Virus record (IMG/VR): IMGVR_UViG_2703718804_000003
DNA from: a virus
Taxonomy: Duplodnaviria > Heunggongvirae > Uroviricota > Caudoviricetes
Reading direction: 5' to 3' (one strand)
DNA length: 30,285 bases
Within the stretch, counting starts at the first letter, position 1; the number at the start of each line of letters is the position of its first letter. Shown here one piece after another: positions 15,001 through 18,000 of this stretch. A program made the position numbers.

Positions 15001-18000
15001 TTTGAATGACGTTCAGAAATTCATTGAAGCCCATCCGGGGTGTACTTCCGGAGACATTGCGGATGCTTTTGCAGGTTACTCACGGCAGCGCGTTCTGCAG
15101 TCAGCAAGCAAGTTACGTCAGAGCGGGCGTGTGGCTCACCGTTGTGAAGGAGATACACGCAGACATTTCCCGCGCCTGACTGAGAGAGCGCAGGAACCGG
15201 AACCACAACCAGTTCGAGAAACCAGACCTGTGCGCAATTTCTATGTCGGCACTAACGATCCACGGGTGATTTTGTGCCTGACCCGCCAGGCGGAAGAACT
15301 GGAGTCCAGGGGCTTATACCGTCGAGCTGCAACGGTGTGGATGGAGGCATTCCGTGAAAGCCACTCCCAGCCAGAACGAAACAATTTTCTGGCGCATCGT
15401 GAGCGGTGCTTACGGAAAAGCAGCAAGCGCGCTGCATCGGGTGAAGAGTGGTATCTGTCAGGGAATTACGTGGGGGCTTAATGAGTAATAAATATTGCCA
15501 GGCGCTGGTGGAACTGCGGAACAAACCAGCCCATGAACTGAAGGAAGTGGGCGATCAGTGGCGCACGCCGGACAACATTTTCTGGGGAATTAACACCCTG
15601 TTTGGCCCGTTTGTTCTGGATCTGTTCACTGACGGTGATAACGCCAAATGTGCTGCGTATTACACGGCGGAAGACAACGCGCTGGCGCATGACTGGTCAG
15701 AACGTCTTGCGGAGCTTAAAGGTGCTGCCTTTGGTAATCCTCCATACAGCCGCGCCAGTCAGCATGAGGGGCAATACATCACCGGCATGCGTTACATCAT
15801 GAAACATGCCAGTGCCATGCGTGATAAGGGCGGGCGCTATGTTTTCCTGATCAAAGCTGCCACCAGCGAAGTGTGGTGGCCGGAAGATGCGGACCATATT
15901 GCTTTTATTCGCGGGCGTATTGGTTTTGAACTGCCTGCCTGGTTTATCCCGAAGGACGAGAAGCAGGTGCCGACAGGAGCTTTTTTCGCTGGTGCTATTG
16001 CTGTTTTTGACAAGACCTGGAAGGGACCGGCAATCAGCTACATCGGGCGCGATGAACTTGAGGCATGTGGTGAGGCGTTTCTGGCGCAGGTTCGCCAGCA
16101 GGCGGAAAAACTGGTCAGGGAGATGGCGGCATGACGACGTTAACTCAATGCCAGCAGCAGGTGCTGGATATGCTGATTTCTTATCAGAAAGAACGTGGCT
16201 TCCCGCCAACCAATCAGGAGGTGGCAACCATGCTGGGATACCGTTCGGTGAATGCAGCGGTGGAGCATCTTCGCGCACTGGAGAAAAAAGGCGTCATCAC
16301 GATAAAGCGTGGTGTGGCCCGGGGGATCACGCTTCATACCGCGGTGAAGGACGACGACAGCGAGGCGGTCGGGATTATCCGCGCCCTGCTTGCCGGTGAG
16401 GCAAACGCCAGGCTGCGTGCAGCCCACTGGTTACATGAGAGGGGCCTGAAAGTATGAAGCTAATACTGCCTTTTCCGCCCAGCGTGAACACGTACTGGCG
16501 ACACCCCAATAAAGGGGCGTTTGCTGGTAAGAGCCTGATAAGCGCGGCGGGGCGAAAATTCCAGAGCGCGGCGTGTGCAGCAATAGTTGAGCAGTTACGT
16601 CGTCTGCCGAAACCAACGTCGGCACCTGCTTCAGTGGAGATCGTGTTGTTTCCTCCGGATAACCGGATCCGCGATCTGGACAACTATAACAAGGCGCTGT
16701 TTGACGCCCTGACCCACGCGGGTGTGTGGGAAGACGACAGCCAGGTGAAAAGAATGCTGGTGGAGTGGGGACCGGTTATCCCGGAAGGGAAGGTCGAGAT
16801 CACTATCAGTAAGTACGAAAAAGCGAGTTGCAAATTAGCAACTCGGTAACGGAATTGAGCAACACCCTAAATTTGGGTATTACCTCGTTAAAGATACTGT
16901 ATTTATGAACAGTGTATCCTTGATAACTATTAAAAATCGCAGTAAGTTCATCCTGCATCAACGAAAAGGGAGTGCAGTCCCGCTCGTGGATAAAAATTTG
17001 TGGAGAAACCAATGAATCAGTTGCTTGTAATTGATGGCGTTTCTGTGCGCCAGTACTTCGAATCTAACTACTGTCTTAACGACCTTCAGAAAGCTGCTCT
17101 TCTTGCCGCTGGTGAGAATCGCTCCTCCCGTTCGCTGGAAGTTCACGAGTTTATGCGTCGTCCTGAAACGAAGGCTCTTGTGGAATTATTGGAAGAAGAA
17201 ACTACGGGAGATTCCCGTAGTATTCCTGTCATCACCATCCAGGGGCGCAATGGTGGGACGTATGTCTGTAAAGAGCTGGTCTATGCATATGCAATGTGGA
17301 TCAGCCCGGCATTCAGCTTAAAAGTGATACGTACTTTTGATGCGCTTCATAATTCATCACCAGAAGAAACCACATCCGACAAAATTAAATCCGGGGTCAT
17401 TCTGCTTGAATCAGCAGCAAAGACTCTAAATCTGTCAAACTCCTCGAAACTTGGTGCATACCAGAAATTATCAAAGGTAGCTGGTCTTCCTGAACTTATG
17501 CCGATCTATGCCATTGATGCACCTGCTGATGCGCCAGATGGTTCAAGCCGCCCTACGCTGTCGCTGAGTGCACTGCTGAAGCAGTATGGTATCCGCCTGA
17601 CGGCTAATCAGGCATATCACCAGATGGTGAAACTGGGGATCGTCGAGCAGCGCGAACGATACAGCCGTACCGCGATTAACAACATCAAAAAATTCTGGTC
17701 GCTGACAGCGAAAGGCTGCATGTTCGGCAAGAACATCACCAGTCCTGCAAATCCGCGCGAGACGCAGCCGCATTTCTTCGAATCCCGATTCCCTGAGCTG
17801 TTAAAGCTGCTCGATACCGTTCATTGAGGTGACCGTGAGAGCACTACTGACCCCTGAAATCGCCCCGCGTATGGGGATCGTATTGTTCAGGCCAGGTTCA
17901 GAGCTGATGCCCCTGTTTATGCAGGGGCGTGTCCTGCTGGAGCCTGAGCCGGAACGTTATTCATCTTTTGCCAGTGGTGCCGTTCCGGCATCATCACAAC

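Follow-up and report, generated by a model that had tools for sequence, protein, structure and literature searches.

What does a LexA DNA-binding domain do in a temperate phage once it has been parted from the peptidase domain through which LexA cleaves itself? The question is raised by a gene at 16131-16457 (plus strand) of the IMG/VR record IMGVR_UViG_2703718804_000003, a 30,285-nucleotide stretch of Caudoviricetes DNA, here called the window, which is identical to an Stx1a (Shiga toxin 1a) prophage of Escherichia coli ARS-C301. The open reading frame (ORF) begins with ATG and has 108 codons, and its product is entered in RefSeq as WP_000210152.1, 'LexA family transcriptional regulator'. An earlier note on this DNA had proposed that the protein acts as a non-cleavable competitor of LexA at SOS boxes. 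We tentatively favour, at a little under an even chance, the view that it is a RecA-insensitive regulator of the LexA winged-helix type which dimerises by a hairpin of its own, is made in lytic growth and recognises an operator related to the SOS box, probably without being identical to it, as is the case for gp6 of the Bacillus thuringiensis tectivirus GIL01.

Domain content and relation to LexA

The domain content of the protein is well established. Residues 1-65 match PF01726 (LexA_DNA_bind) over the entire model (1-65 of 65; E 2.9e-19, 69 bits with a cutoff of 23.7), no Pfam match to Peptidase_S24 (PF00717) is found in the 108 amino acids, and residues 1-108 align with positions 1-106 of 106 in phrog_362 (E 4e-59, 198 bits). 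The NCBIfam equivalog model for LexA, TIGR00498, is aligned over positions 1-91 of 203 and scores 70.7 bits, under its cutoff of 110.95. The protein is consequently a member of PF01726 and of PHROG 362, and it is not a LexA, since it has no S24 domain, falls below the equivalog cutoff and is without two residues that are invariant in LexAs. The top sequence matches in the PDB are 1LEA, the DNA-binding domain of LexA, and 3JSO, a LexA-DNA complex, and BLASTP against E. coli LexA gives 39 identities in 91 positions (43%, E 1e-21), with an alignment that ends near the LexA cleavage-site region. Pfam, NCBIfam, BLASTP and the structural comparison described below thus all bear out the earlier description of a LexA N-terminal winged helix without the S24 domain, and because that domain is missing the protein can have no intrinsic RecA-stimulated self-cleavage, as had also been claimed.

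In the same BLASTP alignment Ala88-Gly89-Glu90 (16392-16400) falls on the LexA cleavage site, Ala84-Gly85-Glu86. This tripeptide is helical in the predicted structure, has no catalytic domain in cis and is shared by the subfamilies of E. coli and Salmonella rather than by the whole family, and it suggests that the gene derives from a lexA cut short immediately after the cleavage site. The phage domain is not a recent capture from the current host, since some non-enteric full-length LexAs are closer to it than the E. coli protein is, with identities of 58% to the non-enteric LexA P0146 and 55-57% to LexAs of Halomonas/Vreelandella (L035, L036), as compared with about 50% to E. coli LexA.

Predicted fold and the C-terminal hairpin

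The fold is equally well established. An AlphaFold2 prediction with the 35-sequence family alignment (mean predicted local distance difference test, pLDDT, 85) shows a winged helix-turn-helix in residues 1-68 (16131-16334, plus strand), with helices at 6-22, 28-35 and 40-52 and a β wing formed by 56-58 and 66-68, the recognition helix 40-52 being encoded by 16248-16286. Foldseek places residues 1-68 on the DNA-bound chains of 3JSO with a root-mean-square deviation of 0.9 Å over 67-68 residues at about 50% identity.

The earlier note had however overlooked what follows, for the protein is more than a bare DNA-binding domain. Beyond a floppy, low-confidence linker (residues 69-75; pLDDT below 50 at 71-75) the model has a C-terminal helical hairpin at residues 75-103 (16353-16439, plus strand), made of helices 75-88 and 93-103 with pLDDT values of 93 and 90, and this hairpin is kept across the Enterobacterales homologues, in which Ala97 is invariant and Ala79 and Leu101 are nearly so. 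A homology search with the 47-residue tail retrieved only fragments of the same LexA-like family and matched no other type of protein, which gives no support to the notion of a portable module. The hairpin is likely to be a dimerisation module that replaces the C-terminal domain of LexA, because a 30-residue amphipathic hairpin behind a flexible linker most simply dimerises, a reading further supported by other S24-less proteins, which use tandem LexA domains to read two half-sites.

DNA-reading residues

A profile search of genome contigs returned almost only genuine proteobacterial lexA genes together with one member of the phage family (L011), and 55 full-length gamma- and beta-proteobacterial LexAs from this search served for comparison. 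Arg28, Phe37, Ser39, Glu44, His46, Ser63, Arg64 and Gly65 are invariant in all 55, as is the Arg-Gly-Ile wing, and position 45 varies between E, D, Q, T and S. At LexA-invariant positions the phage protein has Asn28, Tyr37, Val44 and Ala63. Neither Arg28 nor Glu44 occurs in any of the 35 aligned family members, position 44 being A, V, T, F, N or L, and in seven of the 35 position 45 is neither Glu nor Asp, including all three members from Klebsiella (Leu) and one from Citrobacter (Gly). The residues invariant in the family are Ser39, Asn41, Arg64, Gly65 and Ile66.

Helix 3 accordingly reads S-V-N-A-A-V-E-H-L-R in the phage protein as compared with S-P-N-A-A-E-E-H-L-K in LexA. Five DNA contacts have been listed for helix 3 of LexA, namely Ser39, Asn41, Ala42, Glu44 and Glu45 (PMC3091678), and four of these are kept, Glu44 being the one replaced. 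LexA does not tolerate changes in the CAG core of the half-site, and its Asn41 reads the base adjoining the core by way of a water molecule (PMC5999292). Elimination points to invariant residues, Glu44 and Arg28 among them, as probable readers of the core, and it should be mentioned that the roles given to these two residues here rest on conservation and on secondary citations. The hosts, all Enterobacterales, are assumed to share one SOS-box consensus. Since positions 44 and 45 of helix 3 nevertheless differ between subfamilies, the variation looks like a diversification of specificity rather than the trace of a single conserved target.

Distribution, conservation and selection

The 1.4-kb stretch comprising the Dam, LexA-like and RusA genes matches 2672 of 5426 complete E. 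coli genomes, with a coverage of at least 80% in 1661, and is present in 51 phage records, among them SfV (where the gene is orf42), SfII, mEp460, 1720a-02 and Stx2a and Stx2c phages. When the protein was compared by tblastn with 50,697 phage records, 63 matches were obtained at E ≤ 1e-3, including cdtI and SfIV; the ten groups named (two more are unlisted) are enterobacterial with the exception of a single generic Caudoviricetes record, and among the matches shown the two weakest are unclassified environmental phages. Selection on the gene is evident. Its 84 copies in viral contigs and phages comprise 51 nucleotide alleles and 12 protein variants, none of them disrupted, and the ratio of nonsynonymous to synonymous polymorphism (pN/pS) is 0.05, from which it follows that this is a functional protein-coding gene and neither a chance ORF nor a lexA remnant in decay.

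The family, defined by a full scan of 1.8 billion representatives and by profile search, consists of proteins of 105-130 amino acids from prophages of Enterobacterales (Escherichia, Shigella, Salmonella, Citrobacter, Cronobacter, Klebsiella, Raoultella, Atlantibacter, Kosakonia and Hafnia), and members down to about 40% identity align over their full length, including the C-terminal 35 residues. In Cronobacter the gene order is PerC, Dam, LexA-like, a reverse-oriented ORF, RusA, Rha/ANT, DUF968 and Q, and in Klebsiella it is dinI, an ORF, the LexA-like gene (130 amino acids), a small ORF and DUF968. Closer to the window, 80 viral contigs that each encode a protein at least 98% identical to the present one were compared, and they share a co-inherited block that reaches from PerC to DUF968 (about 15000-18800), with PerC found in 72-74 and DUF968 in 72-73 of the 80 loci. 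The cI/cro region is common to only four of these contigs and the Q region is variable.

The family as such is already catalogued in annotation and in surveys of Stx phages, where it appears for instance as pham 237, 'LexA family transcriptional regulator, pfam01726', in 15 Stx phages (PMC8136144), and our literature search found catalogue mentions only and no functional study. What the present analysis adds is that the tail is conserved, that Arg28 and Glu44 are systematically lost and that an SOS box lies close by. RgdR and other prophage regulators of enterohaemorrhagic E. coli were also considered as possible identities and dropped; this comparison was made by text, no occurrence of LexA being listed for the RgdR paper (PMC3378721).

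Position in the operon

The position of the gene is likewise established. It lies between Dam, an N6-adenine methyltransferase gene of phage type (15481-16134, plus strand; PF05869 9.7e-46, TIGR01712 255.6 bits), and the gene for the Holliday-junction resolvase RusA (16454-16849, plus strand; PF05866 6.4e-15, phrog_34). The Dam stop and the start of the LexA-like gene share an ATGA at 16131-16134, as do its stop and the RusA start at 16454-16457, and all genes from 12803 to 16849 are in fact chained by overlaps of 1-4 nt. The co-operonic arrangement with Dam upstream and RusA downstream, already seen in the earlier note, is thereby confirmed, and the translational coupling to both neighbours that was claimed alongside it fares less well, since the overlaps are there and are consistent with coupling, but overlaps alone do not prove it. 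A consensus scan of the plus strand over 13650-18250 gave a single promoter match of nine positions out of 12 (17324-17353), and no strong terminator was found on that strand over the same range.

The co-inherited block opens with a PerC-family regulator gene (14987-15481, plus strand; PF06069) and closes, after RusA, with a KilA-N domain gene (17012-17827, plus strand; PF04383 1.3e-15, phrog_129 'transcriptional regulator', and so annotated in RefSeq) and a DUF968/HNH-like gene (17835-18824, plus strand; PF06147 4e-81, phrog_96). In the prophage as a whole, integrase and excisionase are followed by the early-left operon, an S24-type cI, cro, a CII-like gene and a Rha-type antirepressor, and these by the replication protein, PerC, Dam, the LexA-like gene, RusA, KilA-N, DUF968/HNH, Q, stx1AB, the lysis genes and terminase. 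With the replication genes on one side and Q on the other, the LexA-like gene thus belongs to the nin-like portion of the early-right operon, and because of this place it would be expected to behave as a delayed-early lytic gene. PADLOC did not link the protein to any defence system.

A proposed role as a dedicated phage regulator

Taken together, these observations can be accommodated by the following scheme, which we put forward with reserve. When the Stx1 prophage enters lytic growth, the protein would be made from the early-right (pR) operon, its N-terminal 68 residues would bind DNA in the fashion of LexA (recognition helix in the major groove, wing against the backbone), and the family-specific hairpin 75-103, standing in place of the S24 domain, would dimerise it for the reading of a palindrome. 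It would in this way be, like GIL01 gp6, a regulator dedicated to the phage rather than a simple copy of LexA, and might act either as a repressor or as an activator. Its operator is expected to be related to the SOS box and not the same, because Arg28 and Glu44 are replaced in every member and positions 44 and 45 differ between subfamilies.

Several points nonetheless weigh against this scheme. Searches for operator palindromes in the co-inherited block (14900-19400), and likewise in the Cronobacter and Klebsiella loci, yielded only coding artefacts; of the candidates rejected, CCAGCA..TGCTGG arises from conserved Gln-Gln-x-Val-Leu codons and GCCACCA..TGGTGGC from the sequence ATSEVWWP of Dam. 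Furthermore, a protein at least 98% identical accompanies differing cI/cro and Q modules, so that its target should be located either on the host chromosome or within the PerC-to-DUF968 block, nearly all of which is coding, and a host-wide target such as the SOS boxes fits this mosaicism better than a phage-specific operator does. In addition, helix 3 of the E. coli subfamily differs from that of LexA only by Pro40Val and Glu44Val, and this near-identity makes residual binding to SOS boxes plausible. Dimerisation through the tail, finally, is itself inferred from a predicted structure.

SOS boxes in the window and in related prophages

A canonical SOS (LexA) box, TACTGTATTTATGAACAGTG, with an exact CTGT-N8-ACAG core, is found at 16895-16914, that is 46 nt 3' of rusA and about 440 nt 3' of the LexA-like gene, in the 162-nt gap between rusA and the KilA-N gene. 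It scores 21.7 bits with a position weight matrix made from 26 E. coli LexA boxes (training range 12.1-27.6 bits, median 19.5; all box scores given here are approximate), and it is the only strong site in the window, the runner-up scoring 10.3 bits and the maximum over 60 shuffles being 17.6. No consensus promoter was found around the box by a scan of either strand. The box is a candidate site of action for host LexA and perhaps for the LexA-like protein as well, and it suggests that the KilA-N gene encodes a putative antirepressor-like regulator under LexA control.

The box occurs at the same offset (+764) in 15 of the 80 carrier contigs. In SfV, mEp460 and 1720a-02 only 19 nt separate rusA from the KilA-N gene, and no box lies between them. 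Together with a variant N-terminus of KilA-N, gap and box make up a module that has been swapped in; it begins at a hairpin (16824-16845) and is also present in SfIV and PhiR49_1. This hairpin is a near-perfect palindrome of 11+11 nt, CGAGTTGCAAATTAGCAACTCG, at the 3' end of rusA, where the similarity to most other phages stops; a run of T follows it on the minus strand, which gives it the look of a terminator for transcripts that would set out leftwards from near the SOS box.

At least one strong SOS box is present in 53 of the 80 carrier loci, and within the DNA examined there is none in the other 27. The most frequent is a box of 22-24 bits that lies 8 nt past the start annotated for a DNA methylase gene, 3' of Q, in SfV (L002:9590-9609), mEp460 (L003:10280-10299) and 1720a-02 (L004:9192-9211), and whose exact sequence is shared by 19 of the 80 contigs. 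Boxes of 25-27 bits (TACTGTTTTTA[CT]ATACAGTA) are found inside the coding sequence of the S24-type cI in mEp460 (L003:1229-1248), 1720a-02 (L004:1217-1236) and Cronobacter prophages (L008:2190-2209), and also in 24 of the 80 carrier contigs; no strong box of this kind is present in the cI of the window studied here. Such a position raises the question of an internal or antisense promoter under LexA control, or else of a roadblock. In Klebsiella prophages the 130-residue homologue lies just 3' of dinI, which has a LexA-boxed promoter (box at L005:5385-5404, genes at 5425-6393) consisting of TTGAAC, a spacer of 17 nt and TATACT, overlapped by a box of 27.6 bits; it is uncertain whether dinI and the homologue are co-transcribed, because a possible terminator follows dinI. 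Since the boxes belong to other modules of the mosaic, their co-occurrence with the LexA-like gene is suggestive only.

Alternative explanations

The idea of the earlier note, that the protein binds CTGT-N8-ACAG and after cleavage of host LexA represses the SOS regulon and LexA-controlled phage promoters anew, is the alternative that survives best. Among its targets would be the box at 16895-16914 before the KilA-N gene, along with antirepressors that LexA controls in rival prophages. It can be argued for on the grounds that Ser39, Asn41, Ala42, Glu45, His46 and the Arg64-Gly65-Ile66 wing are the same as in E. coli LexA, with Glu45 retained in the E. coli subfamily, that the model superposes on DNA-bound LexA, and that one and the same protein in the company of many immunity and late modules calls for an unvarying target, for which host SOS boxes would do. 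The frequency of strong boxes among the carrier loci, the one about 440 nt downstream and the place of the Klebsiella homologue next to a LexA-boxed dinI point the same way, and the isolated N-terminal fragment of LexA is reportedly able to bind operators specifically, if weakly, and to dimerise on DNA (Kim and Little 1992). Against this stand the disappearance of the LexA-invariant Arg28 and Glu44 from every one of the 35 members, the variation of DNA-facing positions between subfamilies whose hosts presumably share the SOS box, the 27 carrier loci in which no box was seen, the location of the boxes in separate mosaic modules (cI, KilA-N, methylase) outside the LexA-like block, and the example of gp6, which shows that truncated LexA homologues can retarget. 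We therefore regard competition for SOS boxes as plausible, yet not favoured by the evidence over a diverged operator, and on balance rather unlikely.

A bolder form of the same idea sees in the protein a conserved 'LexA replacement', proof against RecA and present in about half of E. coli genomes, which would re-occupy the vacated SOS boxes once a lambdoid or Stx prophage is committed to lysis and thus serve both as an off-switch for the SOS response and as a weapon in competition between prophages; this we consider somewhat more doubtful still.

It is improbable, furthermore, that the protein does without sequence-specific DNA binding altogether and is a decoy, its fold or tail titrating a host or phage partner such as a protein that recognises the N-terminal domain of LexA. 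A strongly conserved, family-specific tail and the loss of Arg28, which is LexA-invariant and possibly DNA-facing, would suit such a role, but the family-wide invariance of the listed contacts Ser39 and Asn41 and of Arg64, Gly65 and Ile66 is hard to explain without DNA binding. RecA in particular is an unlikely object of such a decoy, because it engages the C-terminal and not the N-terminal domain of LexA (PMC11787620). That the gene is a decaying, functionless fragment of a captured lexA, as its similarity to LexA up to about residue 91 with the cleavage-site-like Ala88-Gly89-Glu90 might be taken to indicate, has next to no probability left and is effectively refuted by the selection analysis (pN/pS 0.05 over 51 alleles and no disrupted copy), while length and tail are also conserved in at least nine genera and so are the start and stop overlaps with the neighbouring genes.

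Other features of the prophage

A few further observations were made elsewhere in the window. The early-left region contains a run of 39 N at 6210-6248, representing masked or undetermined bases. A gene for a BRCT-domain protein with a weak PADLOC match to PDC-S48 lies beside cI (10283-11173), and the gene in the position of Cro (11978-12226) belongs to the Pfam family YdaS_toxin. Rfam identifies the small RNA STnc100 directly 3' of stx1AB (21089-21302, 194 bits), and within the ORF annotated as a 383-residue 'Rha family' protein (12803-13954) it identifies isrK (13163-13239) and a C4 antisense RNA (13264-13351), a stretch that overlaps a Pfam match to 'Phage_ASH' (residues 117-213 of the ORF). 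The isrK/C4 stretch looks like a c4-antirepressor module of the immI type known from P1/P7, and the N-terminal part of the annotated Rha-family ORF may be non-coding.

Implications

The carriers of the LexA-like module include Stx1, Stx2 and serotype-converting Shigella phages. If the protein does bind SOS boxes, lytic development would be coupled to a shut-off of the host response to DNA damage, with a bearing on Shiga-toxin output after antibiotics, on competition between prophages and on SOS-driven mutagenesis. Were it to replace LexA outright, it would silence the SOS regulon of the host as well as the KilA-N gene with its SOS box and the antirepressors that co-resident prophages keep under LexA control. 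If instead it has an operator of its own, it is an uncharacterised regulator within the best-studied class of temperate phages, and would add to GIL01 gp6 a second, independent example of the retargeting by a phage of a captured LexA DNA-binding domain. The substitutions of Arg28 and Glu44 offer a direct handle for mutagenesis, and the tail, the loss of these residues and the adjacent box together make the question directly testable.

Comparison with known systems

With the N-terminal domain of E. coli LexA the phage protein shares the winged helix-turn-helix and keeps Ser39, Asn41, Ala42, Glu45, His46, Arg64, Gly65 and Ile66. It differs from LexA in being without the S24 peptidase and dimerisation domain, in having Asn28 and Val44, in its own hairpin and in its place in an early lytic operon. 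The LexA(Ind-) mutants offer a parallel if the rivalry for SOS boxes is real, for the phage protein would then likewise be a LexA that activated RecA (RecA*) cannot remove, but those mutants retain the whole C-terminal dimerisation domain. The fragment of residues 1-84 that autocleavage of LexA leaves behind is similar in being a DNA-binding domain that ends near the cleavage site, of which the phage protein keeps Ala-Gly-Glu at 88-90. This fragment binds weakly and is degraded by ClpXP by way of its new C-terminus, and the phage protein differs from it in ending otherwise, with a conserved tail.

LexA DNA-binding domains without the peptidase were also encountered in a metagenomic library, as S24-less proteins of about 160-220 residues with two such domains in tandem (P0156, P0160, P0152, P0131), which may be single-chain 'pseudo-dimers'. 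Proteins such as P0156 and P0160 resemble the phage protein in what they lack, but the domain is duplicated in them to serve two half-sites, whereas the LexA-like family has one domain and a hairpin.

The closest precedent, and the only characterised truncated LexA homologue of a phage, is GIL01 gp6, which is 44% identical to the LexA of its host, binds GaCACAnnTGTGaC and not the host box, and activates the late promoter P3 (PMC6182141). Like the present protein, gp6 is a phage-encoded LexA DNA-binding domain without S24 whose gene stands among early genes. It extends past the helices by only 14 residues, which form the wing, whereas the phage protein has a further 40 residues of linker and hairpin; moreover, the operator and the activator role of gp6 have been demonstrated, whereas the phage protein is known from its sequence and a model, and the late genes of the prophage are under a Q antiterminator. 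No Bacillus phage is found among the named groups of the 63 tblastn matches, in a collection for which the presence of GIL01 is unconfirmed. From their sequences, gp6 and the LexA-like family would seem to be independent lineages, each with a LexA DNA-binding domain freed of its peptidase.

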